Shown: positions 28,924-36,237 of the stretch, piece by piece
Layout of the letters: every line of letters begins with the position of its first letter
Numbering within the stretch: the stretch's first letter is position 1
NCBI GenBank assembly: GCA_016178595.1
Contig: JACOSY010000013.1
Coordinates: forward strand, 153,181-217,180
From: Ignavibacteria bacterium
GTDB lineage: Bacteria > Bacteroidota > Ignavibacteria > UBA10030 > SZUA-254
Length of the DNA stretch: 64,000 bases
Reading direction: 5' to 3'
Position numbers and translations under genes: made by a program
The notes under the pieces: model-generated
Database searches by the model: none
What the model saw: the letters and a program-made list of their open reading frames with translations, nothing else
What the model was told of the DNA's origin: nothing

Positions 28924-29730
28924 ATGAACAACGATAAACCGATTTGCTTCGTCATCCAAGAGTATGACGATGGCGGCACATTCGACAGGCGCTATCACGA
29001 AACTATCGCGCCAGCCCTGTCAAAGGCGGGAGTTGAGCCAAAGCGTGCCGACCAAATTCTCGGGCTCCAACCGGTCGTTGAAAAAATCGAGGTTGCGATA
29101 CAATCTGCCGGTATTTGCGTTGCCGAAGTCAGCACAGACAATCCAAATGTATGGCTGGAACTGGGCTACGCACTTGCATTGGATAGACCCACTGTCATTC
29201 TCTGTGACAAGAGTAAGCGATCTCGACTCCCGTTTGATATCCAGCATCGTCCCGTCATTTTCTATCGTACTGATTCGCGAAGCGGATTTGACGAGCTGGA
29301 ATCCAAACTGATTGTCAATGTTCAGTCTGAGATAGATCGAGCGAATCGAATCACTCGCGCGCCGGTGCTTAAAGGCGGCGCTACTCAGTTGGAAGATCTG
29401 AAGGATTTTGAAGTCGCGCTCTTGAGCACGCTGTTGGCTCTCTGGCCCACGCCGCGTAGTGGTGCATCGCATGACGAGCTTCGGCAAAAACTGTCTTCGC
29501 TAGAGTACAATGATGTGGCGCTAGGCCTCGGAATTTCGCGACTTCTCGAAAAGGGATATGTCACACAAAAAATACTACACGAGACAGACAGCTGGAATAA
29601 TGATTATTCAATTCATGTATACCAAATTACCCTTGATGGCATCTCGTGGATTCAGGCACATGAAGACAAGATTCAAATTCGAGAAGTAGTAAAGGATTCG
29701 GCGACAACAAAGGATGATTTACCATTCTAG
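28924..29730 (+). CDS. Nucleoside 2-deoxyribosyltransferase-like domain protein with probable C-terminal winged helix
   Basis: CFVIQ...RAD...VAEVSTDNPNVWLELGYALAL...LPFDI. Confidence 0.8.
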   Translation: MNNDKPICFVIQEYDDGGTFDRRYHETIAPALSKAGVEPKRADQILGLQPVVEKIEVAIQSAGICVAEVSTDNPNVWLELGYALALDRPTVILCDKSKRSRLPFDIQHRPVIFYRTDSRSGFDELESKLIVNVQSEIDRANRITRAPVLKGGATQLEDLKDFEVALLSTLLALWPTPRSGASHDELRQKLSSLEYNDVALGLGISRLLEKGYVTQKILHETDSWNNDYSIHVYQITLDGISWIQAHEDKIQIREVVKDSATTKDDLPF

Positions 29731-29830
29731 GCCAACAATTGTATCCAGTTTACGACAAGAATATGTCACGCTTCTTGCTGGTGCAAGAAGGCGCGCCACG
29801 TTGTGCCGAAGCTGACGCTGGCCGTTACGC
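29730..29830 (+). mobile_element. Integron attC site
   Basis: R'' GGCCAAC at the stop codon; central hairpin CTTCTTGC-TGGT-GCAAGAAG; imperfect L boxes; R' GTTACGC. Confidence 0.7.
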
Positions 29831-29904
29831 AGCTTCCGCTGTCTCGTACACTCGGGGCTTTGGTTCCAGCAATTCCATCCATCGAACTATACTGATGAAG
29901 AGTT

Positions 29905-30768
29905 ATGAAGCAAATCGTTTGCAGGTTGAAGCTCGTCCGGCATTGTTTTCTTGAAGTGTTGGGCGGTCTCGCGCTAGCCACAATTTCTCAGTTCGCGTTT
30001 GGGCAAAGCGCAAACTCAGCAGCGCTTATCCCGCTCTTCCACGATCGTGTCCACCAACATATAGGCGATGAAAGGCTGCAGTTGATGTCGCAGAGAGTCG
30101 TTGTGTTCGTGTACCACAACGCGGCTGCAGTCTATCTGGATGCACACTTTGTCAACACCGAGTCCGACTCGCTCACGCACGAGCTTGCACTTCCGTCGAA
30201 GGGACATACCAGCGCCCAGTCGGGCACGATCTCCAATGGCATACTCGGCGTCAAGTTGTGGATCGCGGGCGAAAGGGTGGAACCGTCGGTCGATGAAGGA
30301 AAGGAGACGTGGTATACGATTGCTCCGGCATTCGGCTCACACGAGGAGAAACATATCCGCGCGCTCTTCTGGGTGCAGACGTCTTTGGCAGATGTCGATT
30401 CGGTTCCCAGCGTGGATTCGGCGACGATCCATGCGGGAAAGCGGGTGCTTGTCGTCGATCTGCAGCATGCCGCAGCGTGGAAGGATGTCGTCCAATCACT
30501 GGATGTCTCGATGGTGTTGAGGGAGGGCCTGACGAAAAGAAACTCCCGGATGGATCTTGAACCGAAAAACTATCTTGATGATCACTCCACGTTCTTCTGG
30601 TCGTTGCAGAACGTGGAGCCATCGTTCAGTGACGACATTTCTATTGTCTATACGCCGCCTACCGCGATGGCATCGCACTGGAATACGATGGCAAAACTCT
30701 CCGACTACATTACCGGCACAGTGTATGATGAACTGCTGGGGTACGTTCAGCAGTTGGATGAGGAATGA
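29905..30768 (+). CDS. Hypothetical exported protein
   Basis: 287 aa, signal-like N-terminus, beta-rich, host-like GC. Confidence 0.7.
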   Translation: MKQIVCRLKLVRHCFLEVLGGLALATISQFAFGQSANSAALIPLFHDRVHQHIGDERLQLMSQRVVVFVYHNAAAVYLDAHFVNTESDSLTHELALPSKGHTSAQSGTISNGILGVKLWIAGERVEPSVDEGKETWYTIAPAFGSHEEKHIRALFWVQTSLADVDSVPSVDSATIHAGKRVLVVDLQHAAAWKDVVQSLDVSMVLREGLTKRNSRMDLEPKNYLDDHSTFFWSLQNVEPSFSDDISIVYTPPTAMASHWNTMAKLSDYITGTVYDELLGYVQQLDEE

Positions 30769-30776
30769 GTCTGGAC

Positions 30777-30805
30777 CCTTGCGAAGGTTATGAACCTTCG
30801 CAAGG
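30777..30805. terminator. Perfect hairpin between convergent genes (terminator or REP)
   Basis: CCTTGCGAAGGTT-ATG-AACCTTCGCAAGG, 13-bp stem. Confidence 0.65.
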
Positions 30806-30809
30806 ATTA

Positions 30810-31061
30810 TTATGTATTCTTCGTTTTCAGCCCGATCAAGTATTTCGTTGTCGCCTCTGAGACACGGTTCCTGCCGACAGTGAACTCAACGGCAATCGTT
30901 GTCACTTCGCAGATCCTTTGAAGGACGATTTGCGAAGGATACGCTTTGCCTCGTTCGATCTGCGCGTAGTGCTTCAAGGATATTCCGATCTTTGCGGCAA
31001 GTTCTTTCTGGACGAGTTTGTGTTTCTTCCGATACTTTTTGAGCGCCTGCCCCAGCGTCAT
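30810..31061 (-). CDS. XRE family HTH regulator
   Basis: LKKYRKK..LVQKELAAKIGIS...IERGK..PS; RBS GGAGG. Confidence 0.9.
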   Translation of the reverse strand: MTLGQALKKYRKKHKLVQKELAAKIGISLKHYAQIERGKAYPSQIVLQRICEVTTIAVEFTVGRNRVSEATTKYLIGLKTKNT

Positions 31062-31546: not shown

Positions 31547-32653
31547 TTATGCAGCCTCTTTTTTTTCGTAGACTTTCAGAACATCGTACAACGTCGTCCG
31601 CTGCGCAGGAATGAATCCTGAATCCTGAATCAGTTGAATCACCTCTTCCGTGTTCGTCTTGTTCACGAAGTTTGCGGCGGCATGAACGTTTTCTTCGAAC
31701 AGCGTTCCGCCGAAATCATCGGCACCGAAGTGCAGCGCGATCTGTCCTGTCTTTTTTCCTTCCGAGAACCACGATGCCTGGATGTGATCGAAGTTGTCGA
31801 GATAGATGCGGGAGATGGCAAGCATCTGCAAATAGCGCATCGGTGTGGCGTAGTGCGGGATAATTTTTTCCAACGGTGTGTTGCCCGGCTTGAAGCTCCA
31901 TGGGATGAACGCGGTGAAGCCATGGTACTCATCCTGCAACTGCCGGATCGATTCCAGGTGCTCGACGACGTCTTCGTTGGTCTCAAGATGACCGTACATC
32001 ATCGTTGCCGTAGTCTTGTAGCCGATCTTGTGCGCCTCTCGCATGACGTTGAGCCAGTCGGCACTCGTACCTTTGAGGCTTGAGATTTTTTTCTTAACGC
32101 GGTCGGATAAAATCTCCGCGCCGCCGCCGGGGATCGTTCGTTGCCCTGCATCCCACAATCTTTTCAAGACTTCTCGAACCTCCAACCCCGAAACGCTTGC
32201 CATCCCGATGATCTCCGATGTCGACCAGAAGTGTGGCATCACTTCCGGCACCTCCTTCACTGTCCTCTCGACCATCTCGACGTAATATTCGAACGGAATT
32301 TTCGGATTCACACCGCCCTGCAGGAGTACCGTCGTGACGCCATTGGCTACCGAGCGCTTGAAGTTCTCGATCATTGCATCGACCGAGTACGTGTACTCGC
32401 CCGCTTCGCCTTCGTGCCGGTAGAATGCGCAAAAGATACAATCGACGTTGCAGATGTTCGTATAGTTCGGGTTCGTATCGACGACGAACGTTACGCGAGA
32501 CTCGGGATTCTTCCGGTAGCGAATTTGGTTCGCGAGGTCGCCGAGGTCCAAAAGTTCGGCGTTCTTCAGGAGGAAGAGACATTCTTCAGGAGTGAGGCGT
32601 TCCTGGTTCTGGATTTTGGTGGAGATGGTTGAGAGGTGCATGGGGGCGATCAA
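31547..32653 (-). CDS. mqnC: Cyclic dehypoxanthinyl futalosine synthase (radical SAM)
   Basis: NYTNICNVDCIFCAFYR, LLQGG, PGGGAEIL, FTAFIPWSF, HIQASW, EENV; start may be 32641. Confidence 0.92.
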   Translation of the reverse strand: MIAPMHLSTISTKIQNQERLTPEECLFLLKNAELLDLGDLANQIRYRKNPESRVTFVVDTNPNYTNICNVDCIFCAFYRHEGEAGEYTYSVDAMIENFKRSVANGVTTVLLQGGVNPKIPFEYYVEMVERTVKEVPEVMPHFWSTSEIIGMASVSGLEVREVLKRLWDAGQRTIPGGGAEILSDRVKKKISSLKGTSADWLNVMREAHKIGYKTTATMMYGHLETNEDVVEHLESIRQLQDEYHGFTAFIPWSFKPGNTPLEKIIPHYATPMRYLQMLAISRIYLDNFDHIQASWFSEGKKTGQIALHFGADDFGGTLFEENVHAAANFVNKTNTEEVIQLIQDSGFIPAQRTTLYDVLKVYEKKEAA

Positions 32654-32660
32654 GGGATAT

Positions 32661-33089
32661 TTACCCGGGTACTCTTTGATTAACCGGCTCGGGGTTTGGA
32701 TGATAAGAAGCCTCTCTTGCTAATTCGAGCGCGATGCTTTTTCGCCTATCTTTATCTGGGGGCCAGCCTGTGATGTTTGCATGGTTTTCATTTCCCGGTA
32801 TTGGTTCAGAATCTACTAGTAAAGATTGTTTGCGTACTAATAGAGCTAAGATGTCTGCTCGTCCATAAAGGGTCAGGCTGCGTGCTGTTGCAACATTCTT
32901 TCCATGACGCCATAGTTCAATTTCGGACAAACCAACATGACGAGTAACTGAAAGCTTTAAATCACTAGGAGGAAGGAATGCATTCTGTGATGGGGTATTA
33001 TCCTTCTTATGGATCCAATTGCTGCGGAGGATAAATCGTGCTATTAATTCATTATCAACTACTACCGTAACAGGGAAGTCGGCGTTCAT
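32661..33089 (-). CDS. Hypothetical protein, possible ADP-ribosyltransferase/RES-like fold
   Basis: ELIARFI...AFLP..KLSVTR...HANI; ATGA overlap with the upstream gene; fold is inference. Confidence 0.65.
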   Translation of the reverse strand: MNADFPVTVVVDNELIARFILRSNWIHKKDNTPSQNAFLPPSDLKLSVTRHVGLSEIELWRHGKNVATARSLTLYGRADILALLVRKQSLLVDSEPIPGNENHANITGWPPDKDRRKSIALELAREASYHPNPEPVNQRVPG

Positions 33090-33550
33090 GTGGCATTTAT
33101 ACGTCGAATCAAATCAAGAATTATTCTTGGCGTTTCTCCCAAGAAAATCTCAGTGCCGTATGCTTTATTGGGTCCGATGAGTGCAGCATAGTGTAAATCT
33201 CCTTCTGGGCTTATACTGACCGATAGGACACGGTTGGGAGATTGATACCACTCGAATGTAATATGCCCATCCGGTTCAGCGCCAACAGTTGGAGCCGGGA
33301 TGATAGTAGGAAGAACTTCGAGAAAAGCATACGCTCTTGCAAAAGTTTCAGCTTGAATCGCGTCGGCCCCGTACCCATCCCACCCTTTTTCTATCGCCAT
33401 ATCTCGTACCTCAATGAGTTCAGGAAGTACTTTCTTCAGAACTGAAAAATAATAACTATTTTTCAGCTGCTCTTGTATAATAAATGCGGCGCTCGAACTA
33501 TATCCGGTTGTGCTTGTCCCATCAAGGCTAAGAGCAATAGAAGCAATCAT
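33086..33550 (-). CDS. Hypothetical protein with WDGYGA...PDGHITFEW motif
   Basis: 154 aa, ATGA overlaps on both sides, Ser/Thr-rich N-terminus. Confidence 0.75.
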   Translation of the reverse strand: MIASIALSLDGTSTTGYSSSAAFIIQEQLKNSYYFSVLKKVLPELIEVRDMAIEKGWDGYGADAIQAETFARAYAFLEVLPTIIPAPTVGAEPDGHITFEWYQSPNRVLSVSISPEGDLHYAALIGPNKAYGTEIFLGETPRIILDLIRRINAT

Positions 33551-34332
33551 ATGAATGTTTTAAGAAGGTCTTCTGTAATAATACCAAAAAAAGCTTTATT
33601 TTTCAACACGTCGATTTCAACCAACCGCTGTTTTAATAATTCGCTTTTTGGGCCAAAAGGTTGCTGTGTATAGACATCAATATCAAGAATCAGGGCAAAT
33701 TCATTTCCTTGACCCTCAGGAGGTTGCACAGTTTTTATCAAATTCATTGCATATATACTGCCAGGTACGGCAAATATATCGTGGTGTAAGAAGCCAACAC
33801 GCGTGAGATTCATTTCACGTAAATCATCAGGAAATCCCCTAAAGTAATCTTCAAGTTGTACACGTTTCTCTCCTATTATTGGAAAGCGATTAATAAACCT
33901 GACACCTAATCGTTGAATCTCAGATGGCTGTGCCAACTCAAAATGGATCTCCCATAATCGGAGTGCTTCGGCACTGAACAGTTGCCAGTTTTCATAGGGT
34001 TTGAGTCGACTGAAGGAAAAGAGATCAAGTTGAAATTTAGTAATGTGGCTTTTGTCTGCTGAAGTGAATTGCCATCCTTGCCAACCTAGATTTTGGCTAT
34101 CAACTTTAGGTTCTTGACCAGGAGTCCATTGGAGTTGGCTGGAGAATCCTTGCACAGAGCGATGTTCAGGATATCCAGTTAATAGTTGCTTTAGCTTTGT
34201 GAGAATATCGGTTTCGTTCCACGGTAGACTTGCTCGCCCTCGTATCTCAATCACCGCTTCGGTGATTGGCGCACGCGAAAGGTGTGGAAATTTTTCTGAT
34301 GTATCAATGTATGATTGAGGTGCTTGGTCCAT
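33547..34332 (-). CDS. TIGR04255-like protein
   Basis: LSRAPITEAVIEIR, PYENW, RLGVRFINR, ILDIDV, KNKAFF. Confidence 0.8.
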   Translation of the reverse strand: MDQAPQSYIDTSEKFPHLSRAPITEAVIEIRGRASLPWNETDILTKLKQLLTGYPEHRSVQGFSSQLQWTPGQEPKVDSQNLGWQGWQFTSADKSHITKFQLDLFSFSRLKPYENWQLFSAEALRLWEIHFELAQPSEIQRLGVRFINRFPIIGEKRVQLEDYFRGFPDDLREMNLTRVGFLHHDIFAVPGSIYAMNLIKTVQPPEGQGNEFALILDIDVYTQQPFGPKSELLKQRLVEIDVLKNKAFFGIITEDLLKTFI

Positions 34333-34344
34333 AAATGTGTTGCC

Positions 34345-34372
34345 AATATACAGAATAGCTACACTATCTCAA
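34345..34372 (-). promoter_or_regulatory. Candidate promoter for the three-gene island
   Basis: TTGAGA-N16-TATATT in the gap after the mqnE stop. Confidence 0.4.
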
Positions 34373-36237
34373 AGACAGTGCACGTTGATCATATTAATCT
34401 CTTCCACCAACCTCCGAAACTCCCGCATCGCCTCTCGTTCTCTTTCGCCAAGCCGGTAGCTGAAGCCTTCGAGATATTCTTCCACATCTTTTCGCTCAAG
34501 GCCTATGCGCTTGCCGTGAAGTTCGCCGATCTCGCCGAAGTGTTCTTCACTCATATCCAGCGAGCGTTCGATGAGCGACGAGAGTTCTTGTTTGGTTTTT
34601 TCCGGCAAGGGTTTTTTCATTGCCCAGACGGCAAAGACGAACGGCAGCTTCTTCCAGTCGTACCACTCTTTGGCGAGATCGAAGACCAGCTCGAAGCCGG
34701 CAAGTCCGTGTTTGTTACGATGCAGAGCTTCGTCACCGATGAGGAGCACCGCATCGAACTTCGAGCAATCGTTTACGCCGGCGTGCATCCGTTCGAGCGT
34801 TGCTTTTACGCCATATTTCTTTTCCAGCAAGACTTGCAGCAGGCGGACAGAGGTGGCAGTATCGTCGGTGATGCCGATGATTTTTCCATTGAGATCGAGC
34901 CATCCTTCTTTGGAAAAAAGCATCACGCTCTTGACCTGATCGCGCGTGGCGATGCAGAAGGGAAGAAGTTCTAGCGATTCTTCCTGCCGGAAGTAATCCA
35001 TCAAAGAAAAGGGACCCGCGATGATCTGCGCTTTGTCTTCCAACAACCCCATCCGCCGCGGCACGATGGGGAGAATCTTAAACTGCCGCTTCTCAAAATG
35101 ATGATAGAACGGAACCGAGTTGAGGTACGGAATCTTGCCGACGACATTGTCGGCGTAGACGTTGAGCGCATTATAATAGACGTCGCGCTCGACCGGAATT
35201 TTCCCGGCGTCACGGATGATCTTGATGATTTGGTTTTTGGCGAGCTTCATCGGACTGATGGCGCCGGCGTCGTGGGCGATCTTCTCGCCGCCGACGGTTC
35301 CGTCCATGTCGTCCGCTCCGAAGTTGAGGGCAACGGATGCAACTTCTTCCGTCAGCATCACCCAGTACGCCTTGATGTGCGGGAAGTTATCGAGCATTAG
35401 TCGTGAAATAGCAATCGTCTTCAGGTCATCAATGGCGGAGGTGAACTGATTCGTCGGCTTGATGCCCGTGTCGCCCGGCTGGAATGCGAGCGGAATAAAA
35501 GTTAAGAATCCACCCGTCTCATCTTGAGCCTCGCGGAGCTTGATCATGTGAATCAACCGCTCTTCGAGCGTTTCAACATGCCCGTACAACATCGTGCTGT
35601 TGGTGGGAATGCCAAGCTTGTGTGCGGTCTTGTGCACTTCGAACCAACCCTTGGCGCCGATCTTCTGATTGAAGAGAAGTTTTCTGACTCTTTCAGAAAA
35701 GACTTCGGCGCCGCCGCCGGGCATCGTCTTGAGTCCTGCCGCCTGCAATTGGCGTAGCACTTCTTCGATCGGCATCCGGAACTTCTTGTGGAAGAAGTCG
35801 ATTTCGACGGCAGTATACGCCTTCACGTCGGCGTGAGGGAATTTTTCGTGGATCGAGCGGACGATATCGACGTACCGCTCCCACGGCCAGTCGGCCGGCA
35901 TGCCGCCGGTGATGTGGACTTCGGCGATCTCCGGCGAGAGCTTGCCGAGAATCTCTTCGGTCGTCATCTCGTAGGCATTCGCATCGCCCTTCTTCACGGC
36001 GAAATCGCAGAACTTGCACGAGAGGATACAGATGTTCGTGTGCTCGATTTTTTGATTGAGGACGAAGTAGACCGCGTCGCCGCTCTTTTGCTGCTGGACG
36101 AAGTGCGCCATCTTGCCGAGTGCGATGACGTCGTTCGTATTATAGAGCGCGAGGCCGTCTTCGAGGGAAAGGCGTTTACCGCGCTGGACTTTGGACCAGA
36201 TGGGGATGAGATTTTGATCTCTGAAGTTGATACTCAT
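34369..36237 (-). CDS. mqnE: Aminofutalosine synthase MqnE fused to an MqnA-type chorismate dehydratase domain
   Basis: N-terminal CILSCKFC radical SAM, EVHITGG, FIPLAFQP, HIKAYWVM; C-terminal GKIPYLNSVPF, VKSVMLF, TSVRLL, LLIGDEAL, LPFVFAVW. Confidence 0.9.
   Translation of the reverse strand: MSINFRDQNLIPIWSKVQRGKRLSLEDGLALYNTNDVIALGKMAHFVQQQKSGDAVYFVLNQKIEHTNICILSCKFCDFAVKKGDANAYEMTTEEILGKLSPEIAEVHITGGMPADWPWERYVDIVRSIHEKFPHADVKAYTAVEIDFFHKKFRMPIEEVLRQLQAAGLKTMPGGGAEVFSERVRKLLFNQKIGAKGWFEVHKTAHKLGIPTNSTMLYGHVETLEERLIHMIKLREAQDETGGFLTFIPLAFQPGDTGIKPTNQFTSAIDDLKTIAISRLMLDNFPHIKAYWVMLTEEVASVALNFGADDMDGTVGGEKIAHDAGAISPMKLAKNQIIKIIRDAGKIPVERDVYYNALNVYADNVVGKIPYLNSVPFYHHFEKRQFKILPIVPRRMGLLEDKAQIIAGPFSLMDYFRQEESLELLPFCIATRDQVKSVMLFSKEGWLDLNGKIIGITDDTATSVRLLQVLLEKKYGVKATLERMHAGVNDCSKFDAVLLIGDEALHRNKHGLAGFELVFDLAKEWYDWKKLPFVFAVWAMKKPLPEKTKQELSSLIERSLDMSEEHFGEIGELHGKRIGLERKDVEEYLEGFSYRLGEREREAMREFRRLVEEINMINVHCL

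Follow-up and report, generated by a model that had tools for sequence, protein, structure and literature searches.

CmdTAC employs an ADP-ribosyltransferase (ART) toxin and defends against T-even phages (PMC11618068), and the SecB-like chaperone of toxin–antitoxin–chaperone (TAC) systems recognises an element of the antitoxin (10.1101/2024.02.24.581848). PrrC is described as latent through the restriction enzyme EcoprrI and as activated by a T4 inhibitor of EcoprrI (PMC1484252). For Ronin, the proposal is that HsdMS suppresses a small effector, on which cell death in response to anti-restriction proteins depends (10.1101/2023.04.06.535777). The nearest catalogued system to the locus analysed here, the PADLOC candidate PDC-M32, is listed as a hypothetical phage defence candidate in PMC12429752; a full-text search of the literature returned this catalogue mention only.

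Here, we describe a three-gene cassette (g1, g2, and g3) from an uncultured Ignavibacteria bacterium of groundwater, located in a window—the whole stretch of DNA that was analysed—of 64,000 nucleotides. We consider it probable that the trio is a mobile, translationally coupled tripartite toxin–antitoxin or abortive-infection cassette with the ART-fold protein g3 as its effector. Literature searches on R-M-embedded (restriction–modification-embedded) toxin–antitoxin systems and on tripartite toxin–antitoxin systems with MazF, which extended neither to subscription journals nor to supplements on bioRxiv, found no published account of the trio.

Layout, conservation, and relation to described systems

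The cassette is flanked by genes for menaquinone biosynthesis, all on the same strand, with the following features:

33547–34332, minus strand: g1, first gene of the cassette, 261 aa, TIGR04255-family protein
33086–33550, minus strand: g2, middle gene, 154 aa, unnamed family with WDGYGA ... PDGHITFEW, candidate cognate antitoxin
32661–33089, minus strand: g3, last gene, 142 aa, ADP-ribosyltransferase-fold protein, candidate toxin/effector
33547–33550, minus strand: g1/g2 junction, ATGA shared by stop and start codon, 4 nt, translational coupling
33086–33089, minus strand: g2/g3 junction, ATGA shared by stop and start codon, 4 nt
34345–34372, minus strand: sigma-70-like consensus match, possible promoter, upstream of g1 and overlapping the mqnE stop
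34369–36237, minus strand: MqnE–MqnA/D fusion gene, upstream boundary of the insertion
31547–32653, minus strand: mqnC, downstream boundary of the insertion

A first-pass annotation of this DNA had pointed to three AT-rich genes joined by ATGA at both junctions, and this was confirmed throughout, down to the exact count of 24 G+C among the 60 nucleotides at 33601–33660. The trio has a GC content of 0.426, with a GC3 of 0.32–0.35 in its genes, compared with GC contents of 0.53 for mqnC and 0.54 for mqnE and a GC3 of 0.70 in both. Its placement between mqnE and mqnC held on the mqnC side, where the product of 31547–32653 is MqnC (TIGR03699, 461.3 bits versus a cut-off of 428.1; NCBIfam scan), whereas the mqnE side had to be amended: the product of 34369–36237 matches TIGR03700 (467 bits versus a cut-off of 434.55; NCBIfam scan), and its residues 366–613 match PF02621 (VitK2_biosynth; E 8.4e-50, Pfam scan), i.e., MqnE is fused here with an MqnA/MqnD-type VitK2_biosynth domain. 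The mqnE stop and the g1 start are only 36 nt apart, the g3 stop and the mqnC start only 7–19 nt; given these short gaps, the trio is probably co-read from the mqn operon, whose transcription would run through it. The promoter of its own that had been suggested for the cassette corresponds to a real consensus match (TTGAGA-16-TATATT, 10 of 12 consensus positions), but the number of sigma-70-like sites in the region does not exceed that in shuffled sequence (4 observed versus 3.4 ± 1.4), and we therefore do not take the match as evidence for a separate promoter.

A lack of co-occurrence elsewhere had been named at the outset among the observations that would refute the proposed system. Of 52 related loci, which come from many phyla, 43 have the three genes together, in the same order and orientation; the 4-nt overlap between g1 and g2 is kept in 29 of these 43 loci and that between g2 and g3 in 33. 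The trio is one unit, beyond what chance would produce.

Like TAC systems and CmdTAC, the trio consists of three coupled genes and combines a conserved accessory protein with exchangeable toxin–antitoxin pairs. Unlike in TAC, however, the order here is accessory–antitoxin–toxin, g1 carries no SecB-like sequence signature and has a TBP-like model, and g3 lacks detectable sequence similarity to any PADLOC or Pfam family. The resemblance to CmdTAC drawn in the first-pass annotation thus holds for the logic of the system, whereas gene order and protein families differ and speak against shared descent. Its interpretation as a whole—an NAD-using toxin, its antitoxin, and a chaperone or sensor—is partly supported: co-occurrence and the fold of g3 agree with it, but nothing found here favours the role assigned to g1.

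Judged by profile matches, the window's trio is a distant relative of PDC-M32 and no member of it. Two diverged cassettes (L089 and L090), unlike the window's trio, match both PADLOC models, the middle gene PDC-M32A (E 2e-5, profile positions 234–344 of 375) and the last gene PDC-M32B (E 4.7e-6 and 4.8e-7). The window's g2 matches the same part of PDC-M32A, weakly and partially (E 6e-4, profile positions 267–332 of 375), but g3 has no PDC-M32B match at E ≤ 1 and g1 no PADLOC match; moreover, the PDC-M32 entry comprises two proteins, A and B, whereas the trio has three genes.

Fold and conserved residues of the last gene product

We found 99 homologues of g3, none of them named. No Pfam, PADLOC, NCBIfam, or PHROGs toxin family accounts for the protein, its sole Pfam match (Pec_lyase_N, E 0.11) being chance, and the RES family profile did not match either. 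Foldseek returned nothing at E ≤ 0.001 from the PDB and no match from the viral BFVD, and phmmer and profile searches of g1, g2, and g3 against PDB sequences gave nothing usable. In the ESM Atlas, g3 fell into unnamed clusters only, the nearest named one being DUF6098 (0.92, 165 shared features).

The AF2 model of g3 (pLDDT 93.6) was used in a wide fold search, and nearly all of the best 50 rows are, in our own classification by entry title and background knowledge, ART-fold proteins. The best matches were 12 Tpt1/KptA entries (rmsd 2.6–3.3 Å over 91–101 residues) at Z 7.8–8.6, which is the upper edge of the common range of the fold search, the argument resting on the near-pure ART-fold list; DarT (Z 4.3–4.8), RES (3.8–4.3), ParT (3.7), and MbcT (3.6) were matched as well. 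The ART/RES-type fold expected for g3 was thereby recovered, at the level of a model, and g3 models with confidence as an ART, NAD+-binding split beta-sheet fold.

Tpt1/KptA proteins have two lobes, and the N-terminal substrate lobe has most of the Arg-His-Arg-Arg tetrad. The part that aligns with g3 is the C-terminal NAD+-binding lobe (chain residues ~84–186; 6–10% identity); g3 differs in consisting of one lobe, without the N-terminal nucleic-acid-binding lobe, and in having no Pfam or NCBIfam match to the family at E ≤ 1. In DarTG, Xre-RES, MbcTA, and ParST, a small ART-fold toxin likewise sits beside a neutralising partner, and their toxins are among the fold matches of g3; yet g3 lies outside their sequence families, and the locus here has an extra gene, that for the TIGR04255 protein.

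Across 38 sequences, g3 has twelve invariant residues (R18, F38, P40, S47, V48, R50, G76, D79, H103, P110, K113, and A120), and when diverged cassette members were added, F38, S47, and H103 remained invariant and R18 nearly so. The motifs LIARFI, LSV, and HANI, noticed in the first-pass annotation, are all present in the translation: its early Arg strand and its Ser strand are, going by secondary-structure order, strands 1 and 2, which bear the conserved R18 and S47, respectively, and its late His is the invariant H103. ADP-ribosyltransferases use strands 1, 2, and 5 for their catalytic triad, H-Y-[EDQ] or R-S-E, Arg on strand 1 with Ser on strand 2 being the NAD-site signature of the R-S-E clade. 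On strand 5 of g3, no conserved acidic residue occupies the position of the catalytic Glu, and H103 lies at the start of the strand.

It is this strand that lends itself to an alternative in which the cassette logic is the same but g3 is no NAD-consuming ADP-ribosyltransferase, its ART-like scaffold serving instead another nucleic-acid chemistry (phosphotransfer, a cyclic-phosphodiesterase-like reaction, or nuclease activity) or the binding of an NAD/ADP-ribose signal. Besides the unconserved Glu position and the invariant H103, this would agree with the best matches, Tpt1/KptA, acting on RNA/DNA phosphates and not on proteins, and with the presence among the fold rows of Tse2 and AvrPphF ORF2, ART-fold proteins for which we know of no demonstrated ART activity. 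We nevertheless regard it as unlikely: it is the NAD+-binding lobe of Tpt1/KptA that is matched, the pattern of Arg on strand 1 and Ser on strand 2 is present, and nuclease folds are absent among the top fold rows listed. If the trio is indeed a cassette with an ART-fold effector, g3 would be that effector—a small stand-alone protein with a conserved Arg-Ser-His set—and may act with NAD+ on a target in the cell, modifying or depleting it; by analogy with KptA, this could be a phosphate or an end of a nucleic acid.

Partner proteins and related cassettes

The Ser/Thr-rich N-terminus of g2 and its WDGYGA and PDGHITFEW motifs, noted in the first pass, are all found in the translation. g2 has 393 homologues, and a profile of diverged members widened the superfamily to 3774 cluster representatives (50% identity) at E ≤ 1e-3. 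It belongs to no Pfam (E ≤ 1), NCBIfam, or PHROGs family, and scans with Pfam and NCBIfam revealed no macrodomain, Xre, other known antitoxin family, or recognisable DNA-binding domain. The ESM Atlas holds unnamed clusters only for g2, with AF2212-like (0.79) and Atu0565 (0.77) as the nearest named ones.

A complex of g2 with g3 was predicted with a median score of 0.89, the best of three controls scoring 0.00; the three runs share 100% of contacts, and the partner pLDDT is at least 86. Among complexes of solved structure, 116 of 157 attain the mark set for such scores, as against 2 of 215 mismatched pairs, rates that apply only roughly to g2–g3 since own alignments were used for this pair. 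Neither protein has a sequence relative with a solved structure, and the score is therefore unlikely to stem from a memorised one. The predicted interface includes the WDGYGA residues 56–63 of g2; on the side of g3, it would be the face that bears S47 and the helix to which K113 and K117 belong. The modelled complex makes g2 a candidate cognate antitoxin of g3, presumably acting by direct binding; the antitoxin role given to it at the outset fits both this prediction and the paired change of middle and last genes across TIGR04255 cassettes described below.

For g1, what had been read as TIGR04255-like motifs proved to be a whole-protein match to the family HMM above its curated cut-off (E 2.7e-33, 115.8 bits versus 30, profile positions 2–251 of 252), while no Pfam (E ≤ 1), PHROGs, or PADLOC family was matched. 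That this family is functionally uncharacterised agrees with our full-text search, in which no paper names TIGR04255. Residues E25, A26, F100, P112, Y113, W116, R145, N148, D217, D219, K244, and F248 are invariant in 32 sequences. The AF2 model (pLDDT 92.1) shows a TBP-like double beta-alpha unit, for which Foldseek found nothing in the PDB at E ≤ 0.001. The best rows of the fold search were AdoMetDC (Z 8.2), McsB (Z 7.6, 171 residues), and TBP chains (Z 6.0–6.5, aligned over 153–163 residues), and arginine kinase and RepDE also occurred; with all Z ≤ 8.2, these scores are at background level, and we draw no function from them. No SecB entry was among the best 50 rows listed, an absence that is no exclusion. 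The proposal that g1 is a chaperone or sensor thus found no backing in a SecB-like signature, nor in a functional match of the TBP-like model above background.

Beyond the trio loci, two same-strand open reading frames follow the TIGR04255 gene in 22 of 24 other TIGR04255 loci. There, the last gene encodes PemK/MazF in four cases (E 8.5e-15 to 2.6e-12 in the three that were scanned, the fourth being identified as the same protein by eye), a HEPN-like protein in one (PADLOC HEPN_IX, E 4.9e-6), DUF7689 in one, and a g3-like protein with the same S...H motif in six. Since the three-gene layout is kept while the last gene is swapped, for instance for PemK/MazF, the third slot can be read as the toxin slot. 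Middle and last genes are exchanged as pairs across these cassettes, and the alignments of g2 and of the diverged cassettes' middle genes are homologous (hhalign, 97% probability). g1 would count as the conserved third partner, common to cassettes in which the middle and last genes are exchanged pairwise. Its most probable function would be to control or stabilise the antitoxin or to tie toxin release to a trigger such as phage infection, comparable to what the SecB-like chaperone does in TAC systems or the regulator does in paaR-paaA-parE.

Type I R-M genes lie at most two genes away in 12 of the 43 trio loci, with the trio placed between hsdS and hsdR in 6 of these 12; four further loci have McrBC, DUF499, AbiEii, or Cas3-HD neighbours, and one HsdS protein (P0350) carries a C-terminal g2-like domain. 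The remaining 27 loci have only housekeeping or unassigned neighbours, as does the window. This placement of relatives inside or beside type I R-M operons is shared with PrrC and Ronin, but PrrC and RonA have no sequence or fold relation to the trio proteins, and most trio loci as well as the window's genome lack an R-M partner, making the linkage facultative. In the host genome (completeness 96.9%), no match to HsdS was found, so the tie to type I R-M cannot apply in this host.

A wider reading, which we offer tentatively and judge as possible but doubtful, would place TIGR04255 at the centre of a large class of three-part anti-phage abortive-infection systems that has so far gone undescribed, many of them serving as a back-up by which type I R-M complexes are protected from phage anti-restriction, as with PrrC. 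In this joint picture, the TBP-like protein would be combined with swapped pairs (a new Arg-Ser-His ART-fold clade, MazF, HEPN, DUF7689, and others), g2-type domains would dock on HsdS, and g3 would ADP-ribosylate nucleic-acid ends, of which KptA is capable.

Spread of the cassette and its probable insertion between mqnE and mqnC

Within the phylum, the distribution is sporadic, with the g3 family present in 6 and TIGR04255 in 25 of the 401 genomes; in the host genome, g1 is the single copy of its family. Together with a GC3 half that of the mqn genes, this sporadic occurrence suggests that the trio was acquired horizontally, which we hold to be probable as part of the mobile-cassette explanation. 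YO139_2, a P2-like phage of Ralstonia, also carries a trio, located close to an end of its record, where custom HMMs matched g1 at 1e-51, g2 at 3e-9, and g3 at 3e-8. A plasmid search gave no match to g3, 17 pattern matches in IMG/VR viral contigs yielded no confirmed g3, and no longer polymorphic-toxin form of g3 was found among 743 candidates at E ≤ 0.001, the last being weak evidence.

Among 17 relatives with mqnE and mqnC on one contig, the two genes are 11–210 nt apart in nine and further apart in eight, seven of which were examined. Four of these seven junctions contain ParE with a small partner—one of them also PIN with a DUF6290-like gene—while two contain a CAP12/Pycsar-TIR protein and one a Cys-rich open reading frame without an assigned family. 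The mqnE–mqnC junction would thus be a hotspot for cargo, which the cassette probably entered by insertion.

The classical ParE and PIN pairs at this junction would suit a purely selfish addiction module without a part in immunity, with g2 and g3 as type II partners and g1 as a transcriptional regulator like PaaR whose TBP-like saddle binds the operator. A separate regulator is plausible given that g2 has no recognisable DNA-binding domain. TBP chains are among the matches of g1 (Z 6.0–6.5), and 27 of the 43 trio loci have no defence neighbour. Against this, the placement in type I R-M loci, the fusion of HsdS with a g2-like domain, and the phage-borne copy point to defence; the TBP matches of g1 are no better than those to AdoMetDC or McsB, and, among the invariant residues of g1, E, R, N, D, D, and K would suggest a ligand or catalytic site over a DNA-binding saddle. 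We thus rate a pure addiction module as rather improbable. Finally, we reject a role of the trio as an accessory of menaquinone (futalosine-pathway) biosynthesis, which is highly implausible: position is all that favours it (same strand, 36 nt after mqnE and 7–19 nt before mqnC), and it is contradicted by the relatives' junctions (at most 210 nt in 9 of 17, other cargo in 7 of the 8 larger ones), by the halved GC3, by trios of other phyla adjoining unrelated genes, often R-M, by the lack of any g3-family match in the 11 genomes that were searched within the host's order, two of which belong to its family, and by the MazF toxins of other TIGR04255 cassettes.

As the head of three-gene cassettes, TIGR04255—a curated but functionless family—gains a testable context, and in one family of such cassettes the last gene is a textbook toxin, MazF; relatives of these cassettes occur in R-M operons and in a temperate phage. 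The system is not rare, since the g2 superfamily comprises ~3,800 cluster representatives at 50% identity. If the trio is indeed a defence or addiction system, it would provide a new conserved third component of tripartite toxin–antitoxin systems, a new ART-fold clade in which His replaces the catalytic Glu, and possibly one more case of immunity layered on type I restriction.

A GC-poor cassette at a turnover hotspot

The three genes, g1, g2, and g3, lie on the minus strand between mqnE and mqnC and are arranged as follows:

31547–32653, MqnC gene (TIGR03699, 461 bits), downstream of the trio
32661–33089, minus strand, g3, 142-aa ORF
33086–33550, minus strand, g2, 154-aa ORF
33547–34332, minus strand, g1, 261-aa ORF
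34372–34345, sigma-70-like site TTGAGA-16-TATATT, preceding g1
34369–36237, MqnE (TIGR03700, 467 bits) fused to a VitK2_biosynth (MqnA/MqnD-type) domain, 622 aa, upstream of the trio

Both the g1/g2 and the g2/g3 junction read ATGA, as claimed in the first-pass annotation, whose count of 24 G+C among the 60 nt at 33601–33660 was likewise exact. The trio has a GC content of 0.426 and a GC3 of 0.32–0.35, compared with 0.53–0.54 and 0.70 in the flanking genes, from which it is separated by spacers of 36 nt (upstream of g1) and 7–19 nt (downstream of g3). The suggestion that the genes have a promoter of their own held in part: the consensus match does precede g1, but sigma-70-like sites were not more common in the region than in shuffled sequences (4 vs 3.4). 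A further lower-GC region of the window, 28924–31061, contains two ORFs without a Pfam family (28924–29730, 268 aa; 29905–30768, 287 aa), adjoined by an 83-aa XRE-type HTH gene (30810–31061; HTH_3, E 4e-13).

Of the 401 genomes searched from this phylum, six contained the g3 family and 25 contained TIGR04255, the family of g1 (see below). In relatives, mqnE–mqnA adjoins mqnC; nine of the 17 with both on one contig had match-to-match gaps of 11–210 nt, as derived from the coordinates of the listed matches, and the gap in the window's own genome is 1733 nt. We read seven of the eight larger gaps, leaving out that of G413, and found ParE plus a RelB-like gene together with PIN plus a DUF6290-like gene (G089), ParE plus a RelB-like gene (G411), ParE with a small upstream ORF (G403, G408), a 275–294-aa protein with a CAP12/Pycsar TIR domain (G061, G014), and a Cys-rich 120-aa ORF with no family assigned (G414). 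Given this varied cargo, the junction (window 32654–34368; L067–L073) is a turnover hotspot for toxin-antitoxin and defense cargo in this bacterial family and order. The MqnE–MqnA/D fusion itself was retained in 18 of 20 relatives searched, as full-length matches of 68–87% identity; it lies in two pieces in G413, whereas G401 (78% complete) gave no match and G407 a weak partial one.

Conservation and genomic neighborhood of the trio

A scan with one genome per species recovered 47 loci with g3 relatives, from Proteobacteria, Bacteroidota, Acidobacteriota, Nitrospirota, Verrucomicrobiota, Planctomycetota, Ignavibacteriota, Cyanobacteria, and others, and the window's phylum contributed five more. 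When these 52 loci were searched with HMMs built from our own g1, g2, and g3 alignments, 43 carried g1-g2-g3 in this order on one strand, so the three genes do co-occur elsewhere. Four had g2 and g3 without g1: L008 ends at a contig end; upstream of the pair, L047 and L050 carry an ORF (99 or 144 aa) unrelated to g1, and L007 lacks any ORF on the same strand. Three had g1 and g2 (L041 is cut; the other two have a degraded g3), one (L006) had a diverged g3 after two size-matched ORFs, and one had no trio gene. The 4-nt overlap was retained at 29 of 43 g1/g2 and 33 of 43 g2/g3 junctions. From these counts, g2 and g3 make up the core pair, usually accompanied by g1. The trio is a real, conserved, and horizontally mobile three-gene cassette. 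It also occurs near one record end of the P2-like Ralstonia phage YO139_2 (ON170239.1, flagged UNVERIFIED_ORG; L104 194–2061), with E-values of 1e-51 (g1), 3e-9 (g2), and 3e-8 (g3) by our own HMMs; the phage record is unannotated.

We then scanned the trio's neighbors, taking the two closest called ORFs to either side (150 of 161 ORFs; 43 loci in full, leaving out all ORFs from L053 and L054 and three from L052). Type I restriction-modification (R-M) domains were found at 12 of the 43 loci (L011, L014, L022, L024, L025, L026, L029, L034, L035, L040, L041, and L043, of which L034 and L035 are near-identical), and six of these have the trio flanked by hsdS and hsdR. A further four loci had McrBC (L033), DUF499 (L036), AbiEii (L030), or a Cas3 HD domain (L046), and the other 27 had housekeeping or unassigned neighbors. 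A profile of diverged g2-like proteins matched 3774 cluster representatives at E ≤ 1e-3; among the 150 of these listed, one, the 508-aa HsdS specificity subunit P0350 (NF007278, E 9.7e-11), carries a g2-like domain at its C-terminus (residues 400–506), which may represent a genuine fusion or an artefact of read-through or gene calling. In the window's genome (96.9% completeness) HsdS had no match, which counts against a general R-M dependence of the cassette; an HSDR_N domain (E 1.7e-11) does occur in a 1148-aa ORF about 650 nt past the window end (G000:C15:217831–218289).

A candidate ADP-ribosyltransferase-fold toxin and its predicted antitoxin

Searches for g2 and g3 retrieved 393 and 99 homologs, respectively, all of the latter without a name, and neither protein matched a Pfam, NCBIfam, or PHROGs family. 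None of the three proteins had a sequence relative among solved structures in single-sequence and profile searches. Across 38 g3 sequences, R18, F38, P40, S47, V48, R50, G76, D79, H103, P110, K113, and A120 are invariant. An AlphaFold2 model from this alignment (pLDDT 93.6, pTM 0.86) gave no Foldseek match at E ≤ 0.001, the best plausible rows being KptA/Tpt1, and a fold search independent of Foldseek ranked KptA first (Z 7.8), followed by a near-pure ADP-ribosyltransferase (ART)-fold list. Judging by entry titles and what is known of these proteins, we take its 50 rows to be almost purely ART-fold: Tpt1, AvrPphF ORF2, Tse2, Tne2, scabin, TreX, TreTu, DarT, the diphtheria, pertussis, and cholera-like toxins, Arr, SidE mART, RES, ParT, and MbcT; two only, an mRNA capping enzyme and a DNA ligase, were clearly non-ART. 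Twelve Tpt1/KptA entries compared further gave Z 7.8–8.6 (rmsd 2.6–3.3 Å over 91–101 residues), although the tool warns that Z near 8 may reflect a common arrangement, and all 12 alignments fall on the C-terminal NAD+-binding lobe (chain residues ~84–186). Our confidence in the modeled ART/RES-type fold, anticipated in the first-pass annotation, thus comes from the uniformity of the match list and not from the Z score.

The early Arg strand and the Ser strand proposed for g3 were also recovered: by secondary-structure order, strand 1 carries R18 and strand 2 carries S47, the arrangement seen in the R-S-E ART clade, and when the g3-like last genes of diverged cassettes (see below) are included, F38, S47, and H103 are still invariant and R18 nearly so. 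The strand expected to carry the catalytic Glu starts with the invariant H103 instead, and NAD chemistry is hypothesized for g3.

Structure prediction supports binding of g3 by g2. The predicted complex had a median score of 0.89 over three runs, whereas the best of three controls scored 0.00; all runs share 100% of contacts, with a partner pLDDT of at least 86. In calibration, 116 of 157 solved complexes attained the score mark, as did 2 of 215 mismatched pairs, counts that are only roughly valid for g2-g3 because we supplied our own alignments. A sequence search of solved structures returned no comparable complex. The predicted interface involves residues 56–63 (the WDGYGA motif) and 88–133 of g2 and residues 21–47 (including S47), 66–72, and 112–125 (including K113 and K117) of g3, and would fit an antitoxin covering the conserved face of g3. 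The assignment of g3 as toxin and g2 as antitoxin agrees with every computational test run.

TIGR04255 proteins and an exchangeable toxin slot

The TIGR04255-like motifs noticed in g1 reflect clear family membership (E 2.7e-33; 115.8 bits, cut-off 30), and g1 is the only copy in the window's genome. The term 'TIGR04255' appeared in 0 of 8.4 million searchable texts. The g1 model (pLDDT 92.1) is TBP-like, with a duplicated beta-alpha unit. Its fold matches—AdoMetDC (best, Z 8.2), the McsB kinase domain (Z 7.6, 171 residues), arginine and taurocyamine kinases (Z 6.4–7.3, 186 residues), and TBP (Z 6.0–6.5)—are at background level and contradict one another, and we dropped them as a guide to function. 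The family keeps E25, R145, N148, D217, D219, and K244 in the alignment, a pattern suggestive of a ligand or catalytic site. A role of g1 as chaperone or sensor, as first proposed, is hypothetical.

We compared 24 other TIGR04255 loci, leaving out three trio loci already counted, the window's own, and a gene fragment (L101). In 22, the TIGR04255 gene is followed by two co-directional ORFs; in L080 the middle gene bears an HTH and a third ORF is lacking, and L081 is cut at a contig end. The last gene encodes PemK/MazF in L075, L078, and L082 (E 8.5e-15 to 2.6e-12) and, by eye, the same protein in L083 (the profile scan covered the other three), a HEPN-like protein in L074 (Pfam E 0.004; PADLOC HEPN_IX E 4.9e-6), DUF7689 in L079 (E 4e-36), and g3-like proteins in L084, L089, L090, L093, L097, and L100, three of these six by HMM (E 0.0015–0.004) and three by the R..F..S..H motif they share in alignment A5. 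The remaining cassettes end in a gene without an assigned family. Third genes of L077, L091, L098, and L099 form a ~200-aa group (182–215 aa) that shares an S-x-x-C-D-like motif and to which neither Pfam nor PADLOC assigns a family, and the last genes of L088 and L094–L096 form another unassigned family with a Y-S-H-C/T motif. The middle gene covaries with the last: beside g3-like toxins it is g2-like (NWDxYGA...PxGEI), and beside MazF it encodes ~100 aa with an acidic tail. The third slot of TIGR04255 cassettes is a toxin slot.

Another cassette variant with this layout is found on the Crinalium RefSeq plasmid NC_019754.1 (L102 4004–5834), where a 'TIGR04255 family protein' gene is followed, with a 4-nt overlap, by two 'hypothetical protein' genes that matched neither the g2 nor the g3 profile. 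It adjoins an HNH endonuclease and a DNA methyltransferase; a copy on a Thermus plasmid adjoins VapBC, a methylase, and cas6.

The closest entry in existing catalogues is PDC-M32, a hypothetical PADLOC candidate. In L089 and L090, the middle gene matches its A model and the last gene its B model, and the window's g2 is homologous to these middle genes (hhalign 97%) and itself matches PDC-M32A weakly (E 6e-4), whereas g3 and g1 fall below the PDC-M32 models. In its logic, the cassette resembles toxin-antitoxin-chaperone systems such as CmdTAC and the R-M-linked abortive systems PrrC and Ronin; its components are unrelated to those of either group. We file it as a module of the tripartite toxin-antitoxin or abortive-infection kind.
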